64,000 nt of DNA, from NCBI GenBank assembly GCA_963750285.1, contig CAVVQA010000010.1, positions 113,058 through 177,057 on the forward strand. The letters are read 5' to 3'. The position numbers were made by a program, and so were the translations under genes. Numbering within the stretch: position 1 is the stretch's first letter; the number at the start of each line of letters is the position of its first letter. Below are positions 9,861 to 64,000 of the stretch, piece after piece. The notes beneath the pieces were generated by a model, which saw only the letters and a program-made list of their open reading frames with translations, was not told the DNA's origin and made no database searches. Source of the stretch: an uncultured Actinomycetota bacterium (GTDB lineage: Bacteria; Actinomycetota; Actinomycetes; Actinomycetales; CAWJMD01).

Positions 9861-9919
9861 CGGCCCATCGTGCCACCGACCCGTCGTGCCACCGGGCCGG
9901 TGCCGGTACGGTTCGTGAG

Positions 9920-43861: not shown

Positions 43862-43900
43862 CCCACCACCGTTCCCGAGGGGACCGGGTCGGAGGGTCGG

Positions 43901-45500: not shown

Positions 45501-45625
45501 GGGGGAGCCTTCCGTGCCGGGGCCCCGGGCGGTCGGCAGGGCCGGTCCGGACCTGACGAAAGCACACCAGTGTCGGTCGGGGCCAGTCCTACTCGACCGG
45601 TACGCCCCGGGTAGGCTCGTGGATC

Positions 45626-46753: not shown

Positions 46754-46837
46754 CGCCGCCGGCTGACGACGCAGGGGGACACGCACCCTCCCGGCGGTCC
46801 CGGGAACCCTCAGGAACCGGACGTATGCTCGACCCTC

Positions 46838-47533: not shown

Positions 47534-47537
47534 CCCC

Positions 47538-48455
47538 ATGCGTGTGCAGTTCATCCTCGAACAGCTGTGGAAGGGCCTGGCGCGCAACATCGCCATGGTC
47601 GTGTCGGTCGTCATCGTGACGTCGATGTCGCTGTTCTTCGTCGGCGGCGCCCTGCTGTTCCAGCAGCAGATCGACACCATGAAGGACTACTGGTACGACC
47701 GGGTCCAGGTCTCGATCTTCCTGTGCAGCGAGGGCAGCGAGGCGCCCACGTGCACCGCGGGCGCGGCCGACGACGCCGTCCGCGACCAGATCGAGTCCGA
47801 CCTGGAGTCGCCGGCGCTGGAGACCTACGTCGACGAGGTCTTCTACGAGAACAAGGACGAGGCGTTCGACCGGTTCCAGGAGCAGTTCGAGGACACCCCG
47901 GCGATCACCGAGAACGTCACGGCCGAGCAGATGCCGGAGTCGTTCCGGGTCAAGCTCAAGGATCCCGAGAAGTACGAGGTGGTCTCGCAGTTCTTCTCCG
48001 GCCGGTCCGGGGTCGAGGAGGTCGTCGACCAGCGCGAGCTGCTCGACACCTTCTTCAAGTTCCTCAACCTGCTGACGGCGGGGGCGGTGGTGCTGGCCGT
48101 CTTCATGCTCGTCGCGGCGACGCTGCTCGTGGCCACGACGATCCGGCTGGCGGCGGTGAGCCGTCGCCGCGAGACCGAGATCATGCGGCTGGTCGGTGCC
48201 TCCAAGACGCTGCTCCAGCTGCCGTTCATGCTCGAGGGCATCATCACCGTCGCCCTCGGGGCGGCGCTGGCCGTCGCGGGGTGGTGGGTGGTCGTCAAGT
48301 ACGTCGTGCAGGGCGTGCTGGTCTCGGACCTGCCCCTGTTCAACTACATCGGCACGGGTGCGGTCTGGGCGATGGCGCCCTGGCTGTTCGCGCTCGGAGT
48401 GCTCCTGGCCAGCGTGTCGTCCTTGGTCACGCTGTCCCGGTACCTCAAGGTGTAG
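47538..48455 (+). CDS. ftsX: Cell-division ABC permease-like protein FtsX
   Basis: An N-terminal TM, a large extracellular domain, and a C-terminal three-TM FtsX fold. It lies immediately after ftsE. Confidence 0.9.
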   Translation: MRVQFILEQLWKGLARNIAMVVSVVIVTSMSLFFVGGALLFQQQIDTMKDYWYDRVQVSIFLCSEGSEAPTCTAGAADDAVRDQIESDLESPALETYVDEVFYENKDEAFDRFQEQFEDTPAITENVTAEQMPESFRVKLKDPEKYEVVSQFFSGRSGVEEVVDQRELLDTFFKFLNLLTAGAVVLAVFMLVAATLLVATTIRLAAVSRRRETEIMRLVGASKTLLQLPFMLEGIITVALGAALAVAGWWVVVKYVVQGVLVSDLPLFNYIGTGAVWAMAPWLFALGVLLASVSSLVTLSRYLKV

Positions 48456-48524
48456 GGGCGCCACCACCTCCACCAGACACCTCCCACCAGGCCCGGTCCC
48501 GACTTCCCCTCAGGAGCCAGCCCC

Positions 48525-49816
48525 ATGCGCCACCCCGACCCGTCCGCGACGGGACGTCGCCCGACCGCTCGGTCGGGCGCTCGTCGCCGGTGCCGTCGTG
48601 CTGGCCGTCCTGGTCAGCGGCGTCGGCCGCCTCGGCCGACCCGCGCGAGCGCAAGCGGGAGGTCGACAGCTCGATCGAGGAGCTCCAGGAGGCCCTGAGC
48701 GGCACGTCGAAGGAGCTGCAGGCGGCGTACGCGGCGCTGGCGAGCACCCAGGCGCAGATCCCGGTCGCGCAGGCGGCGCTGGACACGGCGCTGTCGGCCG
48801 AGGCCGCCGCCGAGCAGCTCGACGCCGAGCTGGCGGTGCGGCTCGAGGCCGCCCGCACGACGCAGGAGCAGGCGCAGGCCGAGCTGGACGAGAGCAGCGC
48901 CGAGATCGAGCGCACCCGCACCGACATCGGGCGGATGGCCGGCGAGGTCTACCGCTCGGGCGTGGCCTCGCCGCAGCTGAGCATCGTGCTCGGGGCGCAG
49001 AGCCCGGACGACTTCGCCACCCGCTACACCATGGCCGACACCGTGCTGCGGGCCCGGATCGGCACCCTGACCTCGCTGGGCGAGCGGAAGGCGGTGCAGG
49101 CCAACGCGCAGGCACGGGTCGACGCCGTCGAGGTGGAGGTCGCCGACCTGCGTCAGCAGGCCGCCGACGCGCTCGCCGCCGCCGAGCAGGCCCGGGCCGA
49201 CGCCGCCGCGCGGCGCACCGAGCTCGACGGCCTGCTGGCCGCCCAGCAGGCGGCGACGGCCCAGATCGCTGCCCGCAAGGCCGAGGAGGAGACCAAGCTC
49301 GCGGCCTACGAGGCCGAGCAGGCCGCGCTCGCGGCCGAGCTGCGGCGGATCGCCGAGGAGGAGCGTCGCCGGGCCGCCGAGGAGGCGCGCAAGGCGCGCG
49401 AGGCCGGCCGCCGGGTCCCGGCCGCCGCCTCGGGCAACGGGAGCCTGTCGCGCCCGGTGGACGGCTACATCACCTCGGGCTTCGGCTACCGGATCCACCC
49501 GATCTACGGCACCCGCCGCCTGCACGCCGGCACCGACTTCGGGTCGCCGTGCGGCACGCCGGTCCGGGCAGCGGCGCCGGGATCGGTGGTCTCGGCCGGC
49601 TGGGGCGGCGGGTACGGCAACCGGATCATCGTGTCCCACGGCAGCGGCATGGCCACCACCTACAACCACCTGTCGCGGTACGCGGTGCGAGGCGGCTCGG
49701 TGTCGCGCGGCCAGGTGATCGGCTACGTCGGCACCACCGGGTCGTCCACCGGGTGCCACCTGCACTTCGAGGTCCGGATCAACGGGACGCCGGTCAATCC
49801 GATGGGTTACCTCTAG
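48525..49816 (+). CDS. Secreted coiled-coil M23 peptidase (EnvC/PcsB-like, FtsEX-associated), two frameshifts in the signal region
   Basis: RBS then ATG ~48525. The signal peptide is RPLGRALVAGAVVLAVLVSGV. A long Ala/Glu/Gln coiled-coil follows, then the M23 domain (HAGTDFG...GYGNRIIVSHG...GCHLHFEV). Confidence 0.75.
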
Positions 49817-49837
49817 AGGAGTCCGTAGACTCGTCCG

Positions 49838-50320
49838 ATGCCCAAGGAGCAAGGCCGCAAGCTCGTCGCGAGCAACCGCAAGGCGCGGCACGACTACCAC
49901 ATCGACGACACCTTCGAGGCCGGCCTGGTGCTGACCGGCACGGAGGTCAAGGCGCTGCGCATGGGCCGTGCCTCGCTCGTCGACGGCTGGGCGAGCGTCG
50001 ACGGCGGCGGCGAGGCCTGGCTCGAGGGCGTGCACATCCCGGAGTACCTCAACGGCACCTGGACCAACCACGCGCCGCGGCGCAAGCGCAAGCTGCTGCT
50101 GCACCGCGAGGAGATCGTGAAGCTGGCCTCGCGCGCCAACGACAAGGGCTACACGATCGTGCCGCTGTCGCTGTACTTCAAGGACGGCCGGGCCAAGGTC
50201 GAGATCGCGATGGCGCGGGGCAAGAAGGAGTACGACAAGCGGCACACCCTGCGCGAGCAGCAGGACAGCCGCGAGGCGGCCCGCGCGATGTCGGACTCGC
50301 TGCGCAAGCGCCGCCGCTGA
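49838..50320 (+). CDS. smpB: SsrA-binding protein SmpB
   Basis: [41 protein letters not shown]... Confidence 0.92.
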
Positions 50321-50537
50321 CCTGGCTCTCGGTCCTCACAGGCAGGTATCGGGGCAGGGGGTCCGCGGCTCGTCCTCGGGTGACGAGCAGGCGGGCGCGA
50401 CGACGGGCACGTGGCGAGCTGCGCCGATCGTCCGCGTTTCGTGAGACCCGGGGTGGATCGCCCGCGCGCCGCGTGGCAAGGTCAGGGCAGCGCCGTCCGT
50501 CGACGGCGCCGGACCAGGCACGACGAGGAGCACCACG

Positions 50538-51865
50538 GTGGCGTCCCCCACCCACGGCCAGCCGCGGGTGATCCGGCTCGGACCGCGCCCGCGCGCGGCC
50601 GCTGACGACGCGCACCGTCCGGGCGGTCGGACCCGCCGGGTGCGGCGCCTCGCCGTCCGTCCCGGCCGCCGCGGTCCTGGTCGTCGCCTCGCTGCTGTGG
50701 CCCTTCCTGGTCCTCGCCCCGCTGGCCGGGGCCGGTCCGGACCAGGTGCGGCTCGTGCAGGACGACGACACCGCCGACCTCGGCGTCGCGTACGGCCCCG
50801 GCGGCGCCGGGACCGTCACCGCCGACGACGGGCTCGTCGTCGACCAGGTGAGCGCGGCGCTGCTGAAGATCACGCCACCCGGACTCAGCGAGCCCGGCAC
50901 GCGTGCTCGACCCCTCGGCGCTGGCGGCGTCCGGCATCCCCGAGGTCGCGCTGCGCGCCTACGAGGCGGCCGAGTCCGCGCTCGCGCAGTCGGACCCGGG
51001 CTGCGCGCTGCCGTGGTGGCTGCTCGCCGGGATCGGGCGGGTCGAGTCGAACCACGGGCGGTTCGCCGGCGCGGTGCTGCTCGCGGACGGCACGTCGTCC
51101 CCGCCGGTGATCGGCATCCCGCTCGACGGCCGCGAGGGCGTCGCGCTGATCACCGACTCCGACGACGGCCTGCTCGACGGCGACACCACCTACGACCGGG
51201 CCGTCGGCCCGATGCAGTTCATCCCCACGACCTGGGCCGGCTGGCAGGCCGACGGCGACGGCGACGGCCGGGCCGACCCGCACGACGTCACGACGCGGCC
51301 CTGGCGGCCGGCCGGTACCTGTGCGGCGGCGGCGCCGACCTGTCCACCGAGGACGGCCTGCGGTCGGCGGTGTTCCGCTACAACCACAGCGACGCCTACG
51401 TCGACCTGGTGCTGGCGATCGGTCGCGCGTACGCGACCGGCACGACGCCGGTGCTCCCGGTCGGGGACGCGCACCGCGCCCGCGCCGACGACCTCGGCAC
51501 CGGTGCCCACCACGACCCCGCCGCCGACGACCTCGCCGACGGCCGCGCCGACCACCACGCCGCCGACGACCTCGCCCACGACGTCGCCGACCGACCCGGT
51601 GCCCACCTGCACGCCGGCGCCCGACCCCACCGGGTCGCCGACGACGACGACCAGCCCGCCGACGACCAGCCCGCCGACGACACCGCCGACCACGTCGCCG
51701 ACGGACCCGCCGACGCTGCCGCCGTGCGACCCGTGCCCCACCGCCGACCCGACCGGCACGCCCACGACCGACCCGACGGGCGGCCCGACGCCGAGCCCGA
51801 CGTGCACCGTGCCGACGACGGCGCCGCCGACCGACCCGACGGGCACCGGGACCACCACGCCCTGA
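50538..51865 (+). CDS. Second secreted lytic-transglycosylase-domain paralogue with long Pro/Thr-rich tail, frameshifted; start uncertain
   Basis: A TM/signal AAAVLVVASLLWPFLVLAPLAGA. The core CALPWWLLAGIGRVESNHG...GPMQFIPTTW...DPHDVTT is a paralogue of 18315-19380. The tail PTTTPPPTTSPTAAPTTTPPTTSP...TGTGTTTP* is read in frame 50903-51865. Confidence 0.5.
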
Positions 51866-52206
51866 GCTCGCGCGTCCGTCCCTCGCGAAATGCGTTGGAC
51901 CGCAGGGCGGTCCGGGCTCCACCCTTGGTGGCGGTCGTCGTGAGCGGCGAGCCGGCGGTCGCCGGTCCTCGTCCCGCGTGTGAGCGGCGGCCCGGCTCTG
52001 TCACAGCCACGGGACCTCGGATCTCGAGCGCGGTTCAACTCCGCATCACACAAGCGACGGTCGCCGCACCGTGCCCCTCGCGGGGTGGCGGCAGCCGCCC
52101 TGCGGGCGCGCCCAGGTGGGCGTCGTCCCCGTGGCTGCTGCCGGTGCGGCGGCCGTCGCACCCGAGCGACGAACACATCAGACCGACGAGCGAGGAGGTG
52201 GGCACG

Positions 52207-52872
52207 ATGGCACGGATCACGGTGCACGAGGGATGGGTGGCGGTGGTGCGGCGCGACGCGCGGGTGCTCGCCGTCCTCGGGGCGGGCCGGCACCGGCTGC
52301 CCCGGCCGGTGTGGCGGCGGCGGGTCGACCTCGTCGACCAGCGGCAGGCGCTGCTCCTGGTGACCGGCCAGGAGGTCGCGACGGCCGACGTGCCGGGCGC
52401 GAAGGTGTCGGTGCTCGCCCGGTGGCGGGTGGCCGACGCGGTCGCCTTCCTCGACCGGGCGCAGCTGCCGGAGGAGCAGCTCCGGCTCGCCGTCCAGCTC
52501 GCGGTGCGGGACTGGGCGGCGTCGGTGCCGCTCGAGGTGGCGGTGGCCGACCGGGCCGCGGCCACGGGACCGCTGACGGCGTCCGTGCGGGCCGCGGTCG
52601 CCGACGTCGGGATCGAGGTCGAGGAGGTCGCGGTGCGCGACGTCGTCGTCCCGGGCGAGATCCGGCGGGCGGTGCTCGCCCTCGCGACGGCACGGCAGGA
52701 GGGCCAGGTGGCCCTCGAGCGGGCGCGGTCGGAGACGGCCGCGCTGCGGGCGATGGCCAACGGCGCGCGGGTGCTGGCCGATCACCCCGACCTGGCCCGG
52801 CTGCGGCTGGCCCAGGCGGCCGGCGAGGCCGGCGGCACCGTGGTGATCGAGATCGGCCGGCCCACGGGCTGA
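52207..52872 (+). CDS. SPFH/band-7 domain protein
   Basis: 221 aa. The SPFH-like core is followed by an Ala-rich helical C-terminus (RQEGQVALERARSETAALRAMANG). Confidence 0.6.
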   Translation: MARITVHEGWVAVVRRDARVLAVLGAGRHRLPRPVWRRRVDLVDQRQALLLVTGQEVATADVPGAKVSVLARWRVADAVAFLDRAQLPEEQLRLAVQLAVRDWAASVPLEVAVADRAAATGPLTASVRAAVADVGIEVEEVAVRDVVVPGEIRRAVLALATARQEGQVALERARSETAALRAMANGARVLADHPDLARLRLAQAAGEAGGTVVIEIGRPTG

Positions 52873-53045
52873 CGGGCGGTGGCGGTGGGGGCGTGGTGGC
52901 GGTGGGGCTGCACCCGCCGCCACCACCGCCGCGGCAGGTGGCAGTGGAGCGGTCACGCGGAATCACCGGCGCACGACGTCCGTTGCACCAGGTAGCCTGA
53001 GGTCGTCCGGACGGTTCGCCGCCCGGCTGCAGGTACAACTGCACA

Positions 53046-53413
53046 GGGGGTGACTGGTTTCGACGTCGGATGTCGAACTAGGGGAAGCGGGTCGAGGACG
53101 CGGGGTTATCTCGTAAACGCCCTCCGCAAAACACAGGTGCCGATTCCAATCGCACCGACTTCGCCCTCGCCGCCTGAGCGAGCCGCGATAGTCCGTCAGC
53201 CCGGGAGTGCTCTCGACCCGGTAGCTGGCGTCAGCTAGAGAGCCACTGCTGTCAGCACTCGTCGTCGGTGCTGACGGGACTTCTAGGCGACTGGGCCCGT
53301 CGGCGGACATGCTCGCGTGAGCGCCGGGGCCGAGAAAAGCCGTAGCGAGCTGCACCCGGAGAAGCCCTAGGGGTACGACGACGGACGGGAGTTCGATTCT
53401 CCCCACCTCCACA
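53046..53413 (+). ncRNA. ssrA: tmRNA (ssrA), 368 nt; tag reading frame encodes ADSNRTDFALAA*
   Basis: The 5' end GGGGGTGACTGGTTTCGACGTCGGATGTCGAACTAGGGGAAGCG and the 3' end GGACGGGAGTTCGATTCTCCCCACCTCCACA closely resemble mycobacterial tmRNA (tRNA-like T-arm and acceptor). There is an internal resume codon GCC followed by the tag ORF ending ...GCCCTCGCCGCCTGA. It lies 2.7 kb downstream of smpB. Confidence 0.9.
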
Positions 53414-53472
53414 GTCACGCAGGACGAACCCTGCGCCGCGGACAGCGGCGCAGGGTTTCTGCTGTCTCCCGC

Positions 53473-54882
53473 CTACTGGGTGGCGTGCTCGTACGTCGAT
53501 CGTGAACCGGTCATCAGCTGGCGCGCTGCGACTCCGATGACGGCGCTGTAGGTCGGGTAGGCGAACTCCACCCGCGCGAGCGTCGCCACGTCGACCCCCG
53601 CTGCCATCGAGGCGGTCACCGCCGACACGACCTCGATCGCCTGCTCGCCCACCGCGTGCGCGCCGAGGAGCAGCTCGCGCCGGCTGTCGGTGATCAGCTT
53701 GAGGAACCCGCGCGTGCGGTCGTCGATGACCGGCCGTTCCATGCTGGCGTAGTCGATGTGGGCGACGCCGTACGCCATGCCCCGGTCCCGGGCCTGCTCC
53801 TCGGTGAGACCCACTCCCGCGTAGTCCGGGTCGGTGAATCCTCCTGCGGGCAGCAGGTGGTGCGGGGCGCGGGTCCTGGCCCCGAGGACGGCGTTGAGGG
53901 CCGCGGCCTCGGCCTCGAAGTGCGCCGCCTGGACGAGCATGGCCTGCTGGTTGACGTCGCCCGCGGCGTAGATGTGCGGCACGTCGGTACGGAGGTGCTC
54001 GTCGACGGGGATGCCGCCTCTCGACGCCGTCACCCCGGCGGCCTCCAGCCCGAGGCCTCCGATGGACGCAGGCCAGCCGGTGGCGGTGATCACCGCGTCG
54101 TAGGTCGATCGGCGCTCCTCGCCGCCGCGGCGCCAGGTCAGCTCGATCCCGTCGTCCGAGCGCACCAGGGAGACGACGGCGTCCACCGAGGTCTCCACCC
54201 GGACACCCTGCTCGACGAACGCCTGGGCCACAGCGGCGGACACCGCGGCGTCCGTGTGCGCCAGGATCCGCGGCTCCTTGTCGAGCAGCGTGACGTCCGC
54301 GCCGAGCGCCCCGAAGACGGTGACCAGCTGTGCGCCCGTGTTGCCGGCGCCCACGACGGCGAGTCGCCGTGGCACGGAGGGCAGGTCGAGGATCTGCTCG
54401 GGCAGGGTCGCGAGCTCGGCTCCGGGGATCGGCAACCGTCGCGACCGCCCGCCGACGCAGATGATGACCGAGTCGGCGCGCACCCGGCGGCCGGTGGCGG
54501 CGAGCTCGACCTCGTGCGGGCCGGTGAAACGGGCTCGGCCCTCCATCAGCAGGTCGACGCCCGCGGCGGCCAGCTTCTGCGGCTCGGCCTTCGCCTGTTG
54601 CACCCGCTCGACCGTGGCACGAACCCGGGCGACCGTGACCGGCCAGTCCACGGCCTGCTCGGACACCGAGATGCCGTAGGTGTCGGCGGTGCGCACCTCC
54701 CGCATCAGCCGCGCCGTCTTCGCCAGCACCCGCGTCGGCACGCAGCCGCTGTTGACGCAGCTGCCGCCCGTGCGTGACTGCTCGGCCACGGCCACGGTGG
54801 CGCCGAGCTCGGCGGCGCGCAGGGCAGCCGCCGTGCCCGCGGGCCCGCCGCCGATGACGAGCACATCGTAGAAGTCGCTCAC
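53473..54882 (-). CDS. Class I pyridine-nucleotide-disulfide oxidoreductase (Lpd/mycothione-reductase-like)
   Basis: FAD site VIGGGPAGTAAA, a redox-active disulfide GGSCVNSGCVP, an NAD site VVGAGNTGAQ, and a dimerisation domain. Confidence 0.8.
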   Translation of the reverse strand: MSDFYDVLVIGGGPAGTAAALRAAELGATVAVAEQSRTGGSCVNSGCVPTRVLAKTARLMREVRTADTYGISVSEQAVDWPVTVARVRATVERVQQAKAEPQKLAAAGVDLLMEGRARFTGPHEVELAATGRRVRADSVIICVGGRSRRLPIPGAELATLPEQILDLPSVPRRLAVVGAGNTGAQLVTVFGALGADVTLLDKEPRILAHTDAAVSAAVAQAFVEQGVRVETSVDAVVSLVRSDDGIELTWRRGGEERRSTYDAVITATGWPASIGGLGLEAAGVTASRGGIPVDEHLRTDVPHIYAAGDVNQQAMLVQAAHFEAEAAALNAVLGARTRAPHHLLPAGGFTDPDYAGVGLTEEQARDRGMAYGVAHIDYASMERPVIDDRTRGFLKLITDSRRELLLGAHAVGEQAIEVVSAVTASMAAGVDVATLARVEFAYPTYSAVIGVAARQLMTGSRSTYEHATQ

Positions 54883-54932
54883 GGGACCAAACGTCCCACG
54901 GCTCGCTGCTCGTTCTCCTCAGTGACACAGGG

Positions 54933-55291
54933 TTGATGGCCGCCGTGCGCAGGTTCATCCTTGATCCCATGGGCGTCATCGAGCTCGACCTCGAACGCAC
55001 CATCGAGGCGCCCGTCGAGGCGGTGTTCGCGCGGCTGGCCGCCAGCGGCCCCACACGGTGGTCCACCACTGGTGGGACCGGACGAGGTCCGGCCGGCTCA
55101 AGGCCGAGGGCTGGCCGGGCTACTCGCTGCAGAGCGTCTCCGACGGCACGACGCTCGTGCGGCACCACGCGAAGATGCACACGTACGGCCTCTCTCGCCT
55201 GGCCACGCCGATGTTCCGGCGGATCGCCCTCAAGGAGCGCACCGCCACCATGGAGGCACTCAAGGCGTCGTTCGAGAAGAACGCGTTGTAG
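54933..55291 (+). CDS. SRPBCC (polyketide-cyclase/START-like) family protein, frameshifted
   Basis: MGVIELDLERTIEAPVEAVFARLA is the typical SRPBCC opening. The C-terminal part is in frame 55058-55291. Confidence 0.45.
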
Positions 55292-55310
55292 GGCAACGGC
55301 TCCCGTTCGG

Positions 55311-55526
55311 CTAGCGGTTCTCGGCGGACCAGTGCTCGAACAGCACCTCCGGCTCGGTGGCGAACAGATCGACGTGTCCGCAACGTCTGCAGACCCATGC
55401 CGCCAGCGGCGTGGTCCTCGGACGCCCGAGCGGACGCGACCGCATCGTGGAGACGAGCACGTTGCCCTCGCCCATCCCGGTCTCCGGATAAGGCGCAGCG
55501 GTCCGAACACGTCGGCGGACGCGCAC
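55311..55526 (-). CDS. Small hypothetical protein (71 aa, one CxxC)
   Basis: ORF only. WVCRRCGHVDLFATEPEVLFEHW. No family recognised. Confidence 0.25.
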   Translation of the reverse strand: MRVRRRVRTAAPYPETGMGEGNVLVSTMRSRPLGRPRTTPLAAWVCRRCGHVDLFATEPEVLFEHWSAENR

Positions 55527-55611
55527 GCGCGACAGCTGGACGGCGGATCCTGGAGTGGATCGCTCATGGAGGTCTCCTCTGTCGAGCGGCGACAGGCAGG
55601 CACGCTAGTCG

Positions 55612-56286
55612 TCAGTCGGGGTCTCTCAGGGGCTCGAGCGCGTCGAGGACGAGGTCGAGGCCGAAGGCGAACTCCTCTGCCGGGTCGTAGTCGGCAGCGA
55701 CGAGCGCCGCGGCCGACTCGTTGAGGTAGGGGTACTCGTCAGGAGGAAGCTGCGGCAGGAAGACGCCCTCGGCCATGTCCGCGAACTCATCGGCGGTGTC
55801 GAACGGCAGGCTGGCTGCCTGGAGGGCGAACCCGTAGACGTAGGCGTCGAGCAACCAGTTGGCGTGCGTCGCCATCACGACCGAGAAGCCGGCCCGTCGC
55901 AGGCAGGCGGTGACCGCTTCGCGGTGGCGGAGGTGCGCGGGCCCCGGCGACGTCCGCGACTCCATCAGGCCGATCGCCCACGGGTGGCGTGCGAGAACCT
56001 CTCGGGCGGACGCCGAACGCTGTCGCATCGCCGACCGCCAGTCGGTCCCCTCGGCCGGGAGCTCGATCTCCTCGAACACGACGTCGATCATCGCGTCCAG
56101 CAGCTCCTCCTTGTTCGCCACGTAGTGGTAGAGCGACATCGCGCCCGCACCGAGCTCGCCGGCCAGTCGGCGCATGCTCAGCCCGTCGACGCCCTCGCGG
56201 TCGGCGAGACGCAGTGCCTCGAGCACCACCCGCTGCTTGCTCAGCCCTGCGCCAGACCCGACCTGGGGTTGTTCCCTCGCAGACAC
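55612..56286 (-). CDS. TetR/AcrR-family transcriptional regulator
   Basis: LEALRLADREGVDGLSMRRLAGELGAGAMSLYHYVANKEELL. Confidence 0.85.
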   Translation of the reverse strand: MSAREQPQVGSGAGLSKQRVVLEALRLADREGVDGLSMRRLAGELGAGAMSLYHYVANKEELLDAMIDVVFEEIELPAEGTDWRSAMRQRSASAREVLARHPWAIGLMESRTSPGPAHLRHREAVTACLRRAGFSVVMATHANWLLDAYVYGFALQAASLPFDTADEFADMAEGVFLPQLPPDEYPYLNESAAALVAADYDPAEEFAFGLDLVLDALEPLRDPD

Positions 56287-56425
56287 CGGTCTCCTCGTTG
56301 CCTGGGCATGTTGACAGTCGTACAGCGTACGCCCATAGTACGGCGTACGAACTCGGTCGTACGGCGTACGAGCGTGCGGTGAACGAGCAGGCGATGGTCG
56401 CCGGCTCGGATCTGAGGAGGCTCCT

Positions 56426-57169
56426 GTGGGAACCGAACAGCGATCGAAGGCCGGAGCACGGGTCGTGCCAGGAGCGGATCCGGCCGGGGCGGCGACGATG
56501 CGCGTCGTCGGCGCGACGGCGATCGCGCTCGCAGCGTCGATAGCGATCCAGAACGCGATGTTCGTCGGTGTCGATGCTCCTGGCTACGGGGACCCGATCG
56601 AGGAGGTGCTCGCCTGGCACGCGCAGAACCGGGTCGTGGTCGCGATCGCCGTCGGTCAGGAGGCCCTGCACCTGCCGTTGCTGCTCGGGTTCGTGACCGG
56701 TCTCCACGGGATCATCGGGCGTCGCGGGGGTGCGGGTGCGGACTGGTCGCGCCTCGCAGTGGCCGCGGGCGCGACTCTCTCGGCGGTCTACGCGCTCTAC
56801 GCCGTTCTGTGGATCGGGGTCGTGCTGTCCGCCGGCGGGCTCGCCGAGCCGAGCCCGACGTTCGAGCTCGCCTGGCAGCTGCATGCAGCAGCGTTCGCCT
56901 TGGCGCTGCCGGCGCTCGGCACCACCCTGATCGGCGTTGCGCTGGCAGCGCATGCGAGCCGGCTGACGCCGCCGTGGCAGCGTCTGCTCGGCGTGGCTGG
57001 GGGAGGCCTGCTGCTCGCCGCCGGGGTGGCCAGCCTCGCGATCGCGGACGGCTCGGCGTTGTTGCTCGTGGGGCTGCCCGGCCTCGCCGCCTGGCTGGTG
57101 TGGCTGCTGGCGACCGGCGTACGGCTGGTGCGCGCTCGGACAGCCGACCGTCCGGACCGTATCCGCTGA
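56426..57169 (+). CDS. Hypothetical polytopic membrane protein, divergent from the TetR gene
   Basis: Six predicted hydrophobic helices. The likely start is the internal MRVVGATAIALAAS. Confidence 0.45.
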   Translation: MGTEQRSKAGARVVPGADPAGAATMRVVGATAIALAASIAIQNAMFVGVDAPGYGDPIEEVLAWHAQNRVVVAIAVGQEALHLPLLLGFVTGLHGIIGRRGGAGADWSRLAVAAGATLSAVYALYAVLWIGVVLSAGGLAEPSPTFELAWQLHAAAFALALPALGTTLIGVALAAHASRLTPPWQRLLGVAGGGLLLAAGVASLAIADGSALLLVGLPGLAAWLVWLLATGVRLVRARTADRPDRIR

Positions 57170-57528
57170 CAACGCTTCTCGCGCCCGCATCCGTCTCGAC
57201 GCGGTAGGCAAGCCGCGCCGCGCGTGGCCGGGACACGGGTGGAGCTTGACCCCGGTTACCGCACACGTTCGATGTGGTGATCATGCCGCCGCGATAGCGG
57301 CGGAGCGTCGCAGCGCTGCGATCCCTGCCGGGTAAGTATCACCGCCGAGCTGGGTGCGAGCAGATCGTCGTGGAGCCGGACGAGGCGGGTCGCAGACGCG
57401 CTCATGGTCATGGTCTGACCGCGACACCGCGGCTTCTAGAGCCTGACAGGTTCCGCATGGACCGTTCGGCTGATCTGCGTCAGCGGCGCCGCACGTAGCC
57501 TGCTCGTCGCGGGGGCACGGGCCTCCAA

Positions 57529-58347
57529 TTGGTCAACCACTATGAGGCAGCCGTGAAAGTTCGACCGTTCGCTGTCGCGGTCGCATCGATGCTGCTCGTC
57601 TCAGGAGTAGCCGTCGTGGGGCCGGCGTACTCGACGCCGGACACCACCGCGCCGCAGGTGAAGCTGGCTGCGGCTGCGTTCGTGAAGAAGGGCGCGGCGA
57701 TCGGCACCGACGCTAACCGGTCCTTGCCGGCGAACATCACGTGGAAGACCTCCGACCCGTCCGGCATCTGCGAACAGTCGATGGAACTCATTAAGTACTA
57801 CACCGACGGTAGTGACGACGGCGATGATCCTGGCATCGTCGAGAGGCCCCCGCTGACCGCGGCTGCCCGGCAAGCCACAGTCAGATTCGGGCTGGAGTAC
57901 TACCAGTACCTGGTCCGACTTCGCGTCAGCGACTGCGCGGGCAACGTGACGAGCGCGAATTGGGCGTACTACCCGTACGAGTGGTCGCCGGAGTGGGGCC
58001 CGAACCGGCCGTACCGCGACTTCACGACGACCGGCTCGTGGACGTCCGCGCGATGTGCGTGCTGGACGGACGGCGCCGTGATGACGTCCAGCCAGCCCGG
58101 CGCCCGGGCCCGCTTCACGTCGACCGTCAACTCCGGCGTCGCCATCGTCGGGAACACGGCGGCCAACCGGGGCAAGGTGCGGATCTGGGTGGACGGCAGA
58201 GCCGTCACGACGCTCGACCTCAAGGGACCCACCGTCAACCGCACGGTCATCTTCGCTCAGCGGTGGCCTGACTACGGCACGCACACGATCGAGCTCGAGG
58301 TTGTCTCGGGACGTGTCGACCTCGACGCGATCGTCAGCATCGACTGA
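57529..58347 (+). CDS. Secreted hypothetical protein, paralogue family member 2
   Basis: A signal peptide, lower GC, and the C-terminal module ...WTSARCACW...ARFTSTV...VRIWVDGRAVTTLD...NRTVIFAQRW..GTHTIELEVV..RVDLDAIV. Confidence 0.7.
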   Translation: MVNHYEAAVKVRPFAVAVASMLLVSGVAVVGPAYSTPDTTAPQVKLAAAAFVKKGAAIGTDANRSLPANITWKTSDPSGICEQSMELIKYYTDGSDDGDDPGIVERPPLTAAARQATVRFGLEYYQYLVRLRVSDCAGNVTSANWAYYPYEWSPEWGPNRPYRDFTTTGSWTSARCACWTDGAVMTSSQPGARARFTSTVNSGVAIVGNTAANRGKVRIWVDGRAVTTLDLKGPTVNRTVIFAQRWPDYGTHTIELEVVSGRVDLDAIVSID

Positions 58348-58388
58348 TGGTCCTGGTCCGAATTGCCAACTCAAGACTGGAGTCACCT

Positions 58389-59318
58389 GTGCGCCTCCTC
58401 CGACGCCCATCACTGCCGTCCTTCCTCGCCGGCGCCGTCTGCGCCACGGTCTTCGTCGGGGTACCGGCCGTCGCGGCAGTGGTCGGCTCCGACCAGAACC
58501 CCGCGGTCTTCGACGGCACCACGCCGTCGCTCATCGTTCAGCCGGCGCAGTTCTCCATTGGTACAAGCATCGACTCCGCTTATGACTCATGCTTCGGCGG
58601 CCAGTACGGCTACCAGCAGGTGCCGGTGAAGCTCAGGTGGGACGCGACCGACAGCACCGCTGGCGTCTCTTCTTTTGATGTCTACGAGGCAGGAAACGGC
58701 GGCGAAAACGGCTCGGAACTACTCCTCGACCACACCAGAAGCAACACCATCGACGTCCTCACGAGCTCCTACGACGGAGCCTGCGGCGGCGGCTGGGAAC
58801 CCGACCTGTGGTGGGTCACCGCCCGCGACTTCCGCGGAGCAACCGCCACGTCCTCCACGATCGCAGGAGCCCTGGACGTCTGGGACGACACCGGGACCTC
58901 GTACTCAGAGCGGCACGGCGATCTGGCGACGACCCGGACCGGTACGTGGTCGACGTCGCGGTGCGCCTGCGCCAACTTCGGGTCCACGAGCTACACCACC
59001 GCGAGAAACGCCTCGATCACCTACACGATCACGGTCGACAAGCCCGGACGCACCATCGCGATCGTCGCTCCCAAGAGCAGCACCCGCGGGGTTATGAACA
59101 TCAGCGTGGACGGCGCGACAGCACAAGCCGTGAACACGAACGCCACCACCACGATGAACCGCGTCATCGTCTGGCAACGGACCCTCGGCGCCGGTACGCA
59201 CACCGTAAAGGTCACCAACGCGGGAACGTCGGGCCAGAGCCGGATCGACGTTGACACACTCATGCTCGGCCCGGCCTGGACTGGCGAGGTGCGACTCAAC
59301 CTGTACGACCAGAACTAG
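58389..59318 (+). CDS. Secreted hypothetical protein, paralogue family member 3
   Basis: A GTG start after RBS ggagt gives VRLLRRPSLPSFLAGAVCATVFVGVPAVAAVVG. The module reads ...WSTSRCACANFG..ASITYTIT...MNISVDGATAQAVNTN...NRVIVWQR..GTHTVKVTN...RIDVDTLML. Confidence 0.7.
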   Translation: MRLLRRPSLPSFLAGAVCATVFVGVPAVAAVVGSDQNPAVFDGTTPSLIVQPAQFSIGTSIDSAYDSCFGGQYGYQQVPVKLRWDATDSTAGVSSFDVYEAGNGGENGSELLLDHTRSNTIDVLTSSYDGACGGGWEPDLWWVTARDFRGATATSSTIAGALDVWDDTGTSYSERHGDLATTRTGTWSTSRCACANFGSTSYTTARNASITYTITVDKPGRTIAIVAPKSSTRGVMNISVDGATAQAVNTNATTTMNRVIVWQRTLGAGTHTVKVTNAGTSGQSRIDVDTLMLGPAWTGEVRLNLYDQN

Positions 59319-59339
59319 GCGGTCTTGCGCCAAACAAGT

Positions 59340-59362
59340 TGCCAGGCCCGGCGAGCCTGGCA
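59340..59362 (+). terminator. Hairpin just after the paralogue-3 stop (8-bp stem, 7-nt loop)
   Basis: tgccaggc-ccggcga-gcctggca. Confidence 0.35.
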
Positions 59363-59616
59363 GTCGGCGGACTTGGTTTGTCCATAAGCGGCGGCTGGTG
59401 CGCCGGCAGGCCACGGATAGACGCACGCCTCACCCTCTCGTATCTGGGATCCGCGGGGGCGTCCAACAAGCTGAGTGCCTCTAGTCAGAGGACGAGGACA
59501 CTGCAGCCACGGAGGTCGAGCAGATCGACAACGGCCGGCGCTGGTCATGGGCCGCCTCGCGTGCCGAGGCCGACGATCGTCGCCGCGACGCAGAGCAGCT
59601 GGTTGGCGAGCGCATC

Positions 59617-60144
59617 GTGGCAGTGCGCTACTTCACGATCGACTACGAACGCCATCTTCTGCACCCGGACCTGATCGTCCGCGGCCCCCGCAGCGTCGAG
59701 GAAGGTGGGGAATGGACGGAGGCGACATGGTTCAACGATGGCTTCGATGCCCTGGACTACGGACTCGAGATCGTGACTGGCTCAGGTGCTGTCTTCTCGT
59801 TGACCTGGGATCCCCCGGGCGATCGCGAAGGCATCGGCTTGCAGCCGGTTCCCTTGCTCGGAACCGGCGTCCGTAGTGATGCGGACGTAGCGACTTGGTC
59901 GGTGGAGGACCGCTCCGGCACTTGGGCGCACTTGGTGGGGACCGCGATTACTGGTCTTGACTTGCACTACCGCCCTTGGGACGCCGATCAAGGGAGCCTG
60001 TGGTGTTCGCGGATCACATTTCGCGGTGAGCGTGGCCGCGTGGAGGTCGTGATGGGCGACTCCGAGGACGGGCGACTGGTCCCGTCGGCAGACAACGTCG
60101 CAGTGCTGCAGGCGGGCAGAACCCTACCTCGGTGGCTCGCATAA
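59617..60144 (+). CDS. Hypothetical protein (175 aa)
   Basis: A clean ORF with moderate GC and Trp/Asp-rich composition. No family recognised. Confidence 0.4.
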   Translation: MAVRYFTIDYERHLLHPDLIVRGPRSVEEGGEWTEATWFNDGFDALDYGLEIVTGSGAVFSLTWDPPGDREGIGLQPVPLLGTGVRSDADVATWSVEDRSGTWAHLVGTAITGLDLHYRPWDADQGSLWCSRITFRGERGRVEVVMGDSEDGRLVPSADNVAVLQAGRTLPRWLA

Positions 60145-60305
60145 CGGGTCTCCCGGACGAACTTGATGGCCAAGATCAGAGTGGCAAGCAGGCGGCGGAT
60201 GGACGTGCCCCGACCAAAGCCCGGACTGTGCTGGACGTGCTCAACGTGGGCCCCCGCGTGCCTTGGTCGAAGCACCACGATGCCTTGCAGGCATGGCGGT
60301 CGCCG

Positions 60306-60644
60306 CTAGAGGTCCAAGAGCAGCGCCAGAGTCTCGCGGACCTCGCCGAGGATGACGGGGCCCACATTGCCTAGGCGCTGATGAATGCGTGTCGTGGCTA
60401 CCGAGCGCACGTGCTGACACTGCGCCGCAGACCTGGCCGTCAGGCGATTGCTTGGATCGGGGTCGACCGCAATCTCCGTGCTGCTCTTGCGGATCGTTCT
60501 GGTCAGCGGCACGACCTGCACGACGTTGGGGCCACCGTTGAGTACTCGCGCAGCGGTGACGACGATGGCCGGGCGATGCATCCCGGCTTCGCTTCCGGCC
60601 GGTGGGCCGAGGTCGAGCTCGACGACGTCACCCGGCGTCAGCAT
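60306..60644 (-). CDS. mazF: MazF/PemK-family toxin (type II TA)
   Basis: MLTPGDVVELDLGPPAGSEAGMHRPAIVVTA...VVQVVPLTRT... Confidence 0.8.
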   Translation of the reverse strand: MLTPGDVVELDLGPPAGSEAGMHRPAIVVTAARVLNGGPNVVQVVPLTRTIRKSSTEIAVDPDPSNRLTARSAAQCQHVRSVATTRIHQRLGNVGPVILGEVRETLALLLDL

Positions 60645-60825
60645 CGAGCCAGGCCGTCTCTTCCTCCGTGAGTGCGTCGGCGAGGTCGCTGGCCATGTCG
60701 TCCTGGCGGAGCGCGCGCAGAGCGTTGCGAACCGTCGCATCGATCGTTTCGTGCCGTGCGGCCGCCAATCGGGTCACGCGTGCGTGGGTATCCCTGCTGA
60801 CGCGGATCGTCGTTGTCTCGGCCAT
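60628..60825 (-). CDS. mazE: Ribbon-helix-helix antitoxin (MazE/CopG-like); overlaps the mazF start
   Basis: MAETTTIRVSRDTHARVTRLAAARHETIDATVRNALRAL. Confidence 0.7.
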   Translation of the reverse strand: MAETTTIRVSRDTHARVTRLAAARHETIDATVRNALRALRQDDMASDLADALTEEETAWLDADAG

Positions 60826-60918
60826 GCACCAACCGTAACTCGTGTAGACCGAATCGTCTACAGAAGGTCTTGGTGGTGCTCCTCGTATGACTCAGGGCGC
60901 CTGACAGGCGAAAGTTCG

Positions 60919-61830
60919 TCAGACGCCGGCGACGTAGGCGGTCAGGAAGTGGACGCCGTGTCGGTCGAGGTTGCCGCGGGCGCGGTCGTAGTGCTGGGTG
61001 GTGCGGGGGTCGGCGTGGCGGGCGAGGATCTGGGCGTCGCGCAGGGGGACGCCGGCGTCAAGGGCGTTGGTGATGGCGGCGTGCCGAAGTGAGTGGGGGC
61101 TGATGTGCCGGGGGATGGCGGCGGCCTTCGCGATCCGGGTGACCATGCGGTAGGCGTCGCGGCGATCGATCGGCTTGCCCGACAGCGGCCGCAGGACCAG
61201 CGGGCCGGTGGCGCGCTGGCCGCGGCAGGCCTCCAGGACGCGCAGGACCGGCACCGTGATCGGCATGGTGGCGGGCTTGTTGCCCTTGCCGACCAGGTGC
61301 AGGACGCGGTGCCCGCGCAGGGTGTCGGCGTAGTCCTCGATCCGCACGGCGCACGCCTCGGAGGCGCGCAGGGCGTTGATGCCGAGCAGGTACGCCAGGG
61401 CGCCGTGGTGCACGGTCAGGGTCTGGGCGACCTGAAGGAACCGGATCAGCTCGAGCCGGTCCAGGCCCTGGGTGCGGGACTCGTCGCGGTGGACCTTCGG
61501 CAGGCGGGCGTAGACGGCCGGGTCGGAGGGGATGAGGCCGTCGATGTGGGCGAACCGGAAGTAGCCGCGGACGGCGTGCATGGAGGTGACGACGGAGGAG
61601 TCCATCAACCCCGCCTCGCCGAGGTGGCGGATGTAGAGCTCGACGTGGGCTCGCTGGATCCCGACCAGCGGGTCCAGGCCGTGGGTCTGGCACCAGGTGA
61701 ACCACCGAGCGAGCTGGAAGCTGTACAGGTGGTGGGTGCGCCCGGCGTACCGGGCCAGGTAGGAGACCGCCGCCAGCTGAGCGGTCGACATCGTCGCCGG
61801 CTCGTACGGCAGCAGCGTGGTCGTGGACAT
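60919..61830 (-). CDS. Tyrosine-type site-specific recombinase/integrase
   Basis: Catalytic residues are spread across ...HSLRHAAIT...LARHADPRTTQHY (R..H..R..Y). Confidence 0.85.
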   Translation of the reverse strand: MSTTTLLPYEPATMSTAQLAAVSYLARYAGRTHHLYSFQLARWFTWCQTHGLDPLVGIQRAHVELYIRHLGEAGLMDSSVVTSMHAVRGYFRFAHIDGLIPSDPAVYARLPKVHRDESRTQGLDRLELIRFLQVAQTLTVHHGALAYLLGINALRASEACAVRIEDYADTLRGHRVLHLVGKGNKPATMPITVPVLRVLEACRGQRATGPLVLRPLSGKPIDRRDAYRMVTRIAKAAAIPRHISPHSLRHAAITNALDAGVPLRDAQILARHADPRTTQHYDRARGNLDRHGVHFLTAYVAGV

Positions 61831-61976
61831 GGGGTCACCTCGCGCGGCGACCTGGGCCGGGCTCAGACCACGCTCGCCGCTGACGCGGCTGGCACCTGGA
61901 ACGCACGACGCTAGACGGCCGCAACCTCGCCGCACGCTCTGCAGGCGGCGGAAGGGGGTAGGTGGGGGAGCGAGGT

Positions 61977-62387
61977 TCAGGCGGTCAGCCGCTCAAGCGG
62001 TTGTCCGGTGATGCCCGCGATGAGCTCGAAGTCTTTGTCCTGGTGCAGCACGGTGAGTCCTGCGAGCTCGGCGACGGCGGCGATGACCAGGTCGGGGATT
62101 GATGGCGCGCGGTGGTGACCTTCCTTGGCTAGCAGCAGCTGGACTTGCACAGCGCGGTCCTCGGTGGAGGGGGTGAGGTACTCGACCGGCATCGACGACA
62201 TCGGCGGGCGGGTGAGCAGCGTGTGGGCGTCCTGCCAGCTACGGGCGGAGTAGCCGACCTCGAGTCGCGTTACGGTGGTGACTCGGACGAGGCCCCTTTC
62301 GATCCGCTCGGCCCAGGTTGCTGCGTCCGGGCTGGCGCCGAGCCGTACCAGGGCGGACTTGTCGGCGAGCCATTGCGTCACCGCCAC
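61977..62387 (-). CDS. vapC: PIN-domain toxin VapC
   Basis: 136 aa. PIN-like, with acidic residues D/E spaced as expected (LADKSALV..., D..D at the C-terminus). Confidence 0.7.
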
Positions 62388-62599
62388 GCGTCGCCCATCA
62401 CCTTGGGCTCGCTTAAGTCGCCAGCCAGATCTCCGAAGCTCGACAGGTCGTCCACCGAGACGGAGTCGCCAGTGGAAGCGGCGTCGGCTGCCAGCCGCCG
62501 GCGGATGTACTCAACGCGGGACAGGCCCAACCTCGCTGCGTGCGCGTCCACGCCCGCAAGGACCGCGTCGGACAGGTCTCGGATCAGAACGTCAGCCAT
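62378..62599 (-). CDS. vapB: VapB-type antitoxin
   Basis: [36 protein letters not shown]. It overlaps vapC by about 10 nt. Confidence 0.65.
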
Positions 62600-62928
62600 G
62601 GGACCACCTCCAGATATCTGACGATATCATGGGGATACATGACCGCGCGCCTACGCCGCTCGCGGCGGTAGGACTGTGAGGATCGCCAACGCAGTCTGAA
62701 GGTGCTGGGCTGTGGTCGGTGACCGCGAGCGTGACCCCCGGTATGACTGGCTTCGTGCCTTGCTGCGACCTGTCCGCTCGTGGTCGCCGGCCCCGGCCCG
62801 GTTGGAGGAGCTGGCCTGATCAGGAGCTTGACCATGCGGCGTTAGCGGCGCCGGATGTGTCTCATCACAGTCCTGCCGAGCCTCCGTCCCGGACCGGAAC
62901 CACGTCCCGTCCGGCGAAGGAGAGAACG

Positions 62929-63989
62929 CATGAACAGTCTGACCGATCTGCGCGAGGTCGTCGATGTCGTCATCGGCGTCGACACCCACGTCGGGACCCA
63001 CTCCGCGGCCGTGGTCGACGCCGCGACCGGTGCCGTCCTGGACGAGATCACCGTCGAGGCGACAGCCCGCGGCTACGCCGAGCTGGTCGCGTTCGCCGAC
63101 AACCACCCGAGGTTGCGGGCGTGGGCGATCGAGGGGACCGGCAGTCATGGCGCCGGCCTGAGTCGTCACCTGCTGAGCATGTCCGAGCTGGTCATCGAAC
63201 TGGACCGCCCGAAGCGGGTCGCGCGTCGCCACGGCGCGAAGTCCGACGCGCTCGACGCGATCCGCGCCGCGCGTGAGGCGCTGGCCCGCCCGCGGCTGGG
63301 GACACCACGCTCGGGCGGTGAACGTCAAGCATTGTCAGTGCTGTTGGCCGCTCGACGCTCGGCGGTCAACGCCTCCACCGAGGCCCAGCAGCAGCTGTTT
63401 GGTCTGATCGTGGCAGCACCCGAACCCGTCAGGTGTCCGGTTCCGCGGGCAGAAGCTCGCCGCGATGCTGAACACCGCCGCGAAGCTACGCGTGCACCCG
63501 TCCTGGGACGTCGAGACGACCAGCACGGTGGTGGCGCTGCGGACCCTGGCCCGTCGGGCGCACGCGATGCTGAAGGAAGCACGCGAGCTGCAGAAGGCGA
63601 TCGTGGCGATCATCCGCAGCTGGCGCCCGGACCTGCTCGAGCAGTTCGGTGTCGGGCCGATCGTGGCCGCGACGGTGCTGTGCGCGTGGTCTCACCCTGG
63701 CCGGGTCCACTCCGAGGCCGCGTTCGCGATGCTCGCCGGCGTGGCGCCGATCCCTGCGAACAGCGGCCAGGTCACCACCCGGTACCGGCTCAACCGCTAC
63801 GGCGACCGCCAGCTCAACAACGCCCTGCACACCGTGGTCCAGAGCCGGATCCAGTACCAGCAGACCACCCGCGACTACGTCGCCCGCCGCACCGCCGAGG
63901 GCAAGACCGGCCGAGAGATCAAACGCTGCCTGGCCCGCTACGTCGCCCGCGACCTCTACCGCCTACTCGAGGCCCCGGCCACGGCTTGA
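62929..63989 (+). mobile_element. IS110-family transposase gene (DEDD), one frameshift near 63430
   Basis: RBS aaggagag. MNSLTDLREVVDVVIGVDTHVGTHSAAVVD is the IS110 N-terminal DEDD domain. The C-terminal half is in frame 63465-63989 (...RYRLNRYGDRQLNNALH...). Confidence 0.8.
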
Positions 63990-64000
63990 CGAAGCATAGG

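Follow-up and report, generated by a model that had tools for sequence, protein, structure and literature searches.

A probable integron-like cassette array with its own Xer-like integrase near ssrA in an uncultured actinomycete

Genes for transfer-messenger RNA (tmRNA) are classical integration targets, and the tmRNA gene ssrA of an uncultured Actinomycetota bacterium is followed at some distance by a tyrosine integrase gene, two toxin-antitoxin gene pairs and an IS110 transposase gene. The stretch analysed here, referred to as the window, comprises 64,000 nucleotides (nt) of contig CAVVQA010000010.1 and raises the question of how this mobile DNA entered the chromosome. The original prediction regarded everything from ssrA to the window end as a probable genomic island integrated at the tmRNA 3' end. 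Comparison with related loci indicates a different answer, i.e., that ssrA is a bystander, which lies outside the mobile region and is not the insertion site. The region is probably an integron-like, site-specific cassette array with its own small integrase, the shared core mechanism outlined below included.

Related loci of two kinds were compared with the window. Loci retrieved with SmpB from GTDB representative genomes reach no more than 82% identity and do not share the downstream genes. They are too distant to decide the synteny question and served only as a negative check of synteny and as control DNA. Closer relatives were found through a search with the oxidoreductase encoded next to ssrA. 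In one of them, L081, this protein is 99% identical at the amino acid (aa) level, and the locus is collinear with positions 48554-57313 of the window at 96.2% nt identity. Three others, L165-L167, are 91-93% identical at the nt level and collinear with 43373-54892, each with a tmRNA gene adjoining the oxidoreductase gene; homology ends at the 5' end of the latter gene, beyond which GmrSD_C, APH, and UvrA-like genes are located. In L082 and L168 (88-92% aa identity), the oxidoreductase gene lies elsewhere, without ssrA nearby. The onset of variable DNA is thus at 54,893 in comparison to the congeners, 1.5 kb from ssrA, and, within the species, at 57,305 in comparison to L081, 3.9 kb from ssrA.

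The difference from L081 could be located to the base. L081 lacks the window block 57306-61952 (4,647 bp), which holds two genes for secreted proteins (sec1 and sec2), a hypothetical gene, mazEF, and the integrase gene, and the alignment resumes at 61945-62631 with approximately 86% identity. The block is bounded by an 8-bp direct repeat, GCGGCGGA, at 57297-57304 and 61945-61952. The L081 junction reads ...GCCGCCGCGATAGCGGCGGAG/TGGGGCAG..., whereas the window shares this left flank as far as 57305 and continues with the 4,647 bp and then GCGGCGGA/AGGGGGTAGG... (slashes mark junctions here and below). The 5' end of the integrase gene is approximately 120 nt from the right junction of the block. 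Identity to L081 amounts to 97.5% over the 600 nt up to 57305, falls to 85.7% in the vapBC toxin-antitoxin cassette next to the block, and is at the level of noise beyond the following site, site C. Owing to this step in identity, the DNA on either side of each junction must have a different history. Upstream of its own vapBC cassette, L081 carries other cassettes, with a UPF0158-like gene, small open reading frames (ORFs), and an ISL3 element.

The repeat at the block ends belongs to a longer site. When the regions upstream of homologous integrase genes were aligned, a conserved junction, ...GTGCGTCAyTCC/GCCGCCTGCGGACGCGG..., was found at the same position in 66 loci; to the left of this junction, the sequences are unrelated past approximately 12 nt. 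The window repeat GCGGCGGA is the reverse complement of TCCGCCGC at the conserved junction, and the same left-arm motif recurs at the opposite end of the block, ...GCTGCGACG/CTCCGCCGC (57306-57320 as reverse complement). The site consensus is yGCGTCwywyC/GCCGCsw, approximately 19 bp in length, and GCGGCGGA is its core. A regular expression for this site gave 88 matches in 0.53 Mb of integrase loci, all on the integrase strand, and nine matches on both strands together in 1.39 Mb of control DNA. With a position weight matrix (PWM) at a score of 14 or above, 170 sites were detected on the integrase strand of the 0.53 Mb and three on the other strand, compared with eight in the 1.39-Mb control. 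Positions left free in the regular expression are also conserved: position -1 is T or C in 88% and position +16 is A or T in 96% of the sites. As in integrons, the sites form arrays of co-oriented copies that separate cassettes, with a median spacing of 1.35 kb.

The 155 unique sites fall into two groups, of which the first comprises 37 sites that adjoin an integrase gene and the second the 118 sites that do not. Integrase-adjacent sites extend to a 25-bp imperfect palindrome, GCGTCAyTCCGCCGCCTGCGGACGC, whereas the others keep the left arm and the core only. Three independent pairs of loci reveal the position of exchange: in L092/L095 and L096/L099, L101 and L133/L134, and L110 and L124, the integrase cassettes share 97-99% identity on the right of the core but adjoin unrelated DNA on its left, with the break exactly at C/GCCGC, i.e., the match stops one base before GCCGC. 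Together, the window-L081 difference and these three junction swaps form a presence/absence polymorphism whose breakpoints lie in the shared core. From these alignments, the exchange would fall within the approximately 7-8 bp (y)CGCCGC, an overlap of the size usual among tyrosine recombinases. In L164 (Dermatophilaceae), tandem 25-bp units GTCCCACACCGCCGCGAGTGCGGCy, each with the core, are located upstream and downstream of the integrase gene (approximately seven copies at 9760-9880 and approximately 17 at 13780-14200); these resemble empty cassettes or copies of the site produced by slippage. In L163, a Nocardioides assembly with a contig of 4.58 Mb, the integrase gene is followed by approximately 10 kb with sites, and the whole lies between ordinary chromosomal genes.

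Five sites were identified with the PWM in the window, all of them between 57 and 63 kb, on the minus strand, and intergenic; the 57 kb upstream contain no site at a score of 12 or above. The single coordinate quoted for each site is that of the G of GCGTC on the minus strand. Site A (57294-57312; 57311; TGCGACGCTCC/GCCGCTAT; score 14.0) is the terminal site, at which homology to L081 ends (57305). It forms the chromosomal end of the array and abuts a chromosomal palindrome, GCCGC-TATC-GCGGC. Two internal sites follow, one at 59407-59425 (59424; TGCGTCTATCC/GTGGCCTG; score 17.4), which has a degenerate core, and one at 60189-60207 (60206; CACGTCCATCC/GCCGCCTG; score 18.3), which is flanked by the 3' ends of the hypothetical gene and of mazF. 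Site B (61942-61960; 61959; TACCCCCTTCC/GCCGCCTG; score 11.6) is adjacent to the integrase gene and contains the L081 junction. In site C (62659-62677; 62676; ACAG/TCCTACC/GCCGCGAG; score 13.1), the left arm is interrupted by the IS110 element; the equivalent site in L081 is uninterrupted. The array runs from 57,305 past the window end, and its other end lies beyond 64,000.

These sites delimit four cassettes, all assigned to the minus strand, of which the first three are not in L081. The first (57306-59417) encodes the secreted proteins sec1 (57529-58347, plus strand) and sec2 (58347-59318, plus strand), which have weak CBM35-like C-terminal domains. The paralogy proposed for these two proteins holds for the C-terminal domain only (31% identity over 111 aa, E = 2e-11). 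The second is a single-gene cassette (59418-60199) for a 175-aa hypothetical protein (59617-60144, plus strand). This protein has no family match in Pfam and NCBIfam scans, and homologues with 45-68% identity occur in Intrasporangium, Nocardioides, Cellulomonas, Kribbella, and others. The integrase cassette (60200-61952) contains mazF (60306-60644, minus strand; MazF/PemK, PemK 4.9e-18), a putative mazE (60628-60825, minus strand), which is assigned by its position only, the integrase gene, and its leader. The vapBC cassette (61953-62668) comprises vapC (61977-62387, minus strand; PIN, 2.7e-10) and vapB (62378-62599, minus strand; NCBIfam VapB equivalog, 3e-29). In L081, the 85.7% identical copy of this cassette likewise lies between its own sites. 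In another locus, a vapBC pair with 73% DNA identity to that of the window (L117:2130-2806) is located directly downstream of the integrase gene, behind a degenerate site, TGTCAGTTCCGCCCCGA. Since the pair is upstream of the integrase gene in the window, this hints that the vapBC cassette may occupy different positions in different arrays.

The integrase (60919-61830, minus strand) is an Xer-like tyrosine recombinase with Phage_integrase (3.3e-21) and SAM_1 matches. The original prediction had correctly assigned it to the tyrosine recombinases and placed it 7.5 kb from ssrA, but a length of 338 aa for it is to be revised: translation most likely starts at the ATG at 61830, after a GAGGTGA ribosome-binding site, giving 303 aa, similar to homologues of approximately 304 aa. 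All catalytic residues (R...K...HxxR...H...Y) are present in the translation. With a SAM-like core-binding domain and a catalytic domain only, in approximately 303 aa, it has the make-up of an arm-less simple recombinase. Among solved structures, XerD (PDB 1A0P) and XerA (PDB 4A8E) are nearest; among annotated proteins, the nearest are tyrosine integrases encoded by Arthrobacter and Gordonia phages, with approximately 51% identity. With the NCBIfam models, it falls far short of the cutoffs for XerC (99 bits, cutoff 335), XerD (92 bits, cutoff 330), and the integron integrase TIGR02249 (49.2 bits, cutoff 265), and the last match is confined to residues 225-283 in the C-terminal part. A role as the chromosomal XerC/XerD in dimer resolution was rejected on the basis of these sub-cutoff scores, 86-91% identity across orders, a variable context, and two copies in some loci. 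Identity with IntI was also rejected on the basis of the low and partial TIGR02249 match; the XerC and XerD models score higher, but they too stay far below their cutoffs.

Hundreds of homologues with 84-91% identity to the integrase occur across actinobacterial genera. The best 120 are 86-91% identical and approximately 304 aa in length; they derive from Nocardioides, Flexivirga, Monashia, Dermatophilaceae, Intrasporangium, Jiangellales, and Phycicoccus, and from one metagenome-assembled genome labelled Chloroflexota. These identities are far above those of SmpB (at most 82%) across comparable taxa, and the integrase has therefore spread horizontally. No integrase match was found in 72,556 plasmids or in IMG/VR. 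Homology at the nt level between the window and 80 metagenome loci is restricted to the integrase gene and a leader of approximately 90-135 nt; it is limited on one side by the stop codon (60918/60919) and on the other by positions 61914-61963, i.e., the L081 junction.

The leader of the integrase gene (61831-61944, minus strand), approximately 110 nt in length, is conserved in 40 loci, with the blocks CTAGCGT, GGTCCAGGTGCC, TGGCCGCGTTGGCGGCGAGCGGGGTCTGGGCC, and GGTCGCCGCGTGAGGTGAC and further GCCGCG/GCGGCG motifs. An RNA fold in the leader has no covariation support, since a compensatory change occurs in only one of 13 predicted pairs; the leader may hold operator or promoter sequences. In L163, most of the leader has been removed by an insertion sequence (IS) with an rve-type transposase. 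Downstream of the integrase gene, this locus (L163:11349-15382) has two genes of unknown function and a ThiF - Prok-JAB - DUF6602 trio resembling a defence-type module.

A second mobile element homes to the site. The IS110-family element in site C (62661-64000, plus strand) reaches the window end and encodes a transposase in two frames (62930-63989, plus strand; DEDD_Tnp_IS110, 5.5e-12; Transposase_20, 3.6e-17). The family proposed earlier is confirmed by both domains, but the frame is broken near 63400, with the DEDD domain at 62930-63400 and the Transposase_20 domain at 63465-63989. Homologous copies begin at the equivalent of window positions 62651-62661 in six other loci (L128:12932-14287, L122:5-435, L150:1752-1963, L126:1-145, and L145/L147, here L145:3186-3253). 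In the window, L128, L122, L150, and L145/L147, the end of the element, ...CCTCACAG (...GATCCTCACAG), abuts TCnnnyCGCCGC, and the element has thus entered the site at GCG^TC, always in one direction. The adjoining sequence in L126 is a variant, ACGCTCCACCGC, and the insertion there seems to be shifted by a few bases. A DEDD transposase and a fixed insertion position and orientation in a repeated target are the features of site-targeting IS110 elements. That a second mobile element homes to it supports the site as a real and abundant sequence feature. The situation is parallel to that of the IS1111-attC elements of integrons, which target recombination sites [PMC11187229]. It also has a parallel in the RNA-guided targeting of IS110 [PMC11208160]. 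The 270-nt 5' non-coding region of the window element has three copies of CAGTCnTnCC (62676-62661 and 62745-62737, both reverse complement, and 62865-62877, plus strand), which could be guide segments of a bridge RNA or seekRNA.

The content of the cassettes is diverse. Among 131 unique cassette ORFs, the 122 that do not encode an integrase were scanned; nearly all are singletons, and they cover 161 Pfam families, including GNAT acetyltransferases, hydrolases, methyltransferases, ParE/Phd, TetR, LuxR, and NERD.

On the basis of these comparisons, the following mechanism is proposed. The integrase would recombine pairs of sites inside the 7-8-bp core (y)CGCCGC. Given their direct orientation, a crossover between two sites would release the intervening DNA as a circle with one site, and in the reverse reaction a circle could enter at any site. 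The 25-bp palindromic site next to the integrase gene is probably the preferred partner and would be attP- or attI-like. Blocks of one or several cassettes could thereby be gained, lost, and reordered, and the three-cassette block of 4,647 bp that distinguishes the window from the 96%-identical L081 may be an example. The mazEF and vapBC toxin-antitoxin cassettes would stabilise the array, and the IS110-family element would take its sites as an insertion target. Catalysis of these events by the integrase is an inference, as is the mobilisation in trans of cassettes that have no integrase gene.

Several observations weigh against this interpretation. Recombination itself is deduced from sequence comparison. 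Among the five sites of the window, two are weak, namely site B with its score of 11.6 and the site at 59424 with a mutated core. The PWM was trained on the very loci that were scored, for which strand asymmetry and the control loci provide independent checks. The 118 sites away from integrase genes have neither dyad symmetry nor a hairpin signal nor an enriched inverted partner, and their mean folding z-score of -0.09 equals that of control flanks, which makes the binding of two recombinase monomers to such one-armed sites hard to explain. Of the cassette ORFs, 72 share the strand of the integrase gene and 59 lie opposite, and directions are mixed in the window as well; hence there is no common promoter logic of the integron type. 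Finally, the same cassette was rarely found in clearly different arrays, as an all-against-all comparison mostly recovered one locus from different samples, and the evidence for exchange of single cassettes is therefore thin.

An alternative is tandem accretion, an unlikely explanation but one that deserves to be taken seriously. Only the integrase-bearing elements would then be mobile and would pile up via the attP-like site, while units without an integrase would be decayed remnants, which move, if at all, with a neighbouring integrase element and do not constitute a cassette system. Cis-mobilisable elements (CIMEs) beside integrative and conjugative elements (ICEs) are a known parallel. Indeed, the block that differs from L081 has the integrase at one end and partly degenerate internal sites, the full 25-bp palindrome is confined to integrase-adjacent sites, and two integrase copies are present in some loci (L106 and L123). 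However, 118 of the 155 unique sites are not beside an integrase gene, and in at least 72 of the 80 loci a single integrase copy is seen in flanks of up to 8 kb to either side. Among the units that lack an integrase, some are as short as 0.3-0.8 kb and have well-conserved sites, and the vapBC unit lies between good sites in two genomes with different neighbours, all of which speaks against accretion. Alternatively, the 19-bp repeat might be passive, i.e., a repetitive extragenic palindrome-like or terminator-associated sequence at which indels arise by RecA-dependent or microhomology recombination, with the integrase as a passenger. The sites are short and intergenic, and those away from the integrase lack the dyad symmetry expected of a recombinase site. 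Nevertheless, this explanation is very improbable in view of the strict co-orientation with the integrase gene (170 versus 3) and of clustering only around it, these sites being absent from the 57 kb of the window ahead of the array and from the 10 kb that precede the integrase gene in L163. Moreover, the extended site occurs at a fixed distance upstream of the integrase start codon in 37 unique loci, and the breakpoints lie in an 8-bp core, which is too short for efficient homologous recombination.

Integration of the whole of 53,414-64,000 into the ssrA 3' end, as one old or composite island, retains hardly any probability. It would agree with the lower GC content past ssrA (71.3% in 53414-57305 and 67.3% in 57306-61952, compared with 74.5% in 1-53000) and with the absence of the downstream genes from all 80 distant SmpB loci. 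The locus also resembles tmRNA- and tRNA-targeting islands in the proximity of ssrA and in its integrase, toxin-antitoxin, and IS content. However, an attR repeat of ssrA is lacking in the window, as the original prediction had already noted: its 3'-terminal 26-mer matches itself alone with up to three mismatches, and blastn-short with the last 170 nt of ssrA returned only chance 10-13-mers. The DNA directly after ssrA is not variable either, as ssrA, the terminator, and the oxidoreductase gene are collinear in L081 (96% nt identity) and L165-L167 (91-93%); a conserved gene thus precedes the variable DNA, and this part represents synteny shared across the clade rather than island DNA. The integrase, encoded 7.5 kb from ssrA, is of an arm-less Xer-like family and not of a tRNA/tmRNA type, and it has its own, unrelated attachment site; the 80 metagenome loci with integrases of 84-91% identity contain no tmRNA gene and one tRNA gene. 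The measured indel borders, 57,305 and 61,952, are likewise away from ssrA. Although integration at the tmRNA 3' end is not upheld, the stretch does contain mobile, strain-variable DNA, so that the label "island-like" is fair. The suspicion of a composite structure also proved apt in another sense, since the region is modular as an array of cassettes. Conservation of the downstream gene order in relatives, named beforehand as an argument against an island, was found for the ssrA-proximal part only (L081 and L165-L167).

Since the window has a GC content of 73.5%, genes were called by third-position GC (GC3), and families were checked against Pfam and NCBIfam. The intact tmRNA gene with its tag was verified: ssrA (53046-53412, plus strand; tag ADSNRTDFALAA) is recognised by ARAGORN and matches Rfam RF00023 over its full length (140 bits, model positions 1-374 of 374), and tmRNA is the only Rfam match in the scan. 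In L081 (9766-10132), the tag differs in one residue, ADSKRTDFALAA, from that of the window and L165-L167. A terminator-like hairpin (53420-53464; inverted repeat with 20-nt arms, 85% complementary, and a 5-nt loop) separates ssrA from the convergent gene of an FAD/NAD(P) pyridine-nucleotide disulphide oxidoreductase (53473-54882, minus strand; Pyr_redox_2, 4.6e-55, and Pyr_redox_dim; GC3 0.93), the stop codon of which is 60 nt from the ssrA end. The following ORF (54969-55291, plus strand), earlier named SRPBCC, is divided between two frames and has no Pfam match, and the name is not substantiated. The same split is present in L081 (L081:7886-8260), and the ORF is probably a gene remnant common to both. 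A TetR-family regulator gene (55612-56286, minus strand; TetR_N and TetR_C_1) is also in L081, but not at this position in L165-L167. The divergent gene for a 247-aa membrane protein (56426-57169, plus strand; no Pfam match) is the last gene shared with L081 (approximately 97% identity). Apart from SRPBCC and from mazE, the families of the original gene list, i.e., oxidoreductase, TetR, membrane protein, MazF, integrase, VapBC, and IS110, are supported. The low-GC block was also borne out at 57306-61952: GC and GC3 support a foreign origin for 57.3-62.7 kb, whereas 53.4-57.3 kb is not decidable from composition.

Two further features of the surroundings were observed. The congeners have a second, older synteny break, which starts from 54893 (in comparison to L165:1-9990) and involves GmrSD_C, APH, a 438-aa protein, and a UvrA-like ATPase; in the congeners, these genes occupy the place taken in the window by the TetR and membrane protein genes and by the array. 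L165 has a lone high-scoring site at 7964 (score 20.9), which overlaps the APH start codon. On the other side of ssrA, the smpB-ssrA interval (50746-52956, approximately 2.7 kb) has a GC content of approximately 78% and encodes an SLT-like protein and a Band_7 protein. The SLT-like protein contains an internally repetitive low-complexity stretch at 51489-51841, and its SLT-like part has a paralogue with 68-70% identity at 18.7-19.4 kb (18691-19365) of the window.

Among known systems, the array functionally resembles integrons in its short, diverse cassettes of mostly one or a few genes, co-oriented sites, a tyrosine recombinase, toxin-antitoxin cassettes, and an IS110/IS1111-type element that targets the sites [PMC11187229]. 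Yet, important differences are present: no IntI-type integrase is encoded, the sites are asymmetric, defined by sequence, and approximately 19 bp in length rather than folded attC hairpins, and the integrase gene is itself one of the cassettes of the array, encoded on the strand on which the sites lie. Cassette genes have both orientations, instead of being co-oriented behind a common promoter.

The pdif (dif) modules of Acinetobacter plasmids use the host XerC/XerD, and the orientation of their sites alternates. The sites described here are all direct and chromosomal and have a dedicated recombinase, and no match was found in the 72,556 plasmids. Nevertheless, both systems involve the Xer-like family of simple recombinases, and pdif modules, including toxin-antitoxin modules, are likewise flanked by short Xer-type sites and shuffled between replicons [PMC13141974, PMC6160057]. 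The integrase shares its length of approximately 300 aa and the restriction to core-binding and catalytic domains with the arm-less simple phage integrases of the IntBrujita type; this likeness refers to the broad arm-less type. Distinctively, phage genes are absent here, IMG/VR contains no match, and the 84-91%-identical family is chromosomal in site arrays. Brujita Int is reported to act in excision as well as in integration [PMC8138268, citing Lunt & Hatfull 2016].

Accretion of ICEs and integrative and mobilisable elements, together with CIMEs, also leads to tandem build-up at one attachment site, including units without an integrase that have attachment sites. In these systems, elements stack at one att site, and some keep att sites without an integrase. 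ICE/CIME systems and tycheposons target tRNA or other conserved genes and consist of kilobase-long units with replication or transfer genes. By contrast, the units described here can be 0.3-2 kb in length and carry no transfer genes, and the site is not in a gene. Tandem build-up of elements at one site is also reported for tycheposons [10.1101/2020.12.28.424599]. Full-text literature searches, which were not exhaustive, returned no description of the present integrase-and-site system.

For the window itself, these results correct the annotation, as ssrA is no longer to be listed as the integration site and the borders of the variable DNA are stated to the base. If the cassette reading is true, the integrase and the 19-bp site would provide a simple annotation marker that delimits flexible regions, and the compact recombinase with its site of approximately 25 bp would be a candidate tool for high-GC hosts. 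A broader proposal is put forward tentatively, as a possibility somewhat short of even: Actinobacteria may carry a widespread, undescribed integron analogue, which consists of chromosomal cassette arrays with a 19-bp site, a horizontally spreading arm-less Xer-like integrase-cassette, stabilising toxin-antitoxin cassettes, a site-parasitising IS110 lineage, and mobilisation in trans. Complete integrons have not been found in Actinobacteria [PMC4889954]. If the array reading holds, the system would be a second, independently evolved form of integron-like cassette capture, in a phylum reported to be without integrons, and would be relevant to the exchange of small accessory, toxin-antitoxin, and defence-type genes among soil actinobacteria.

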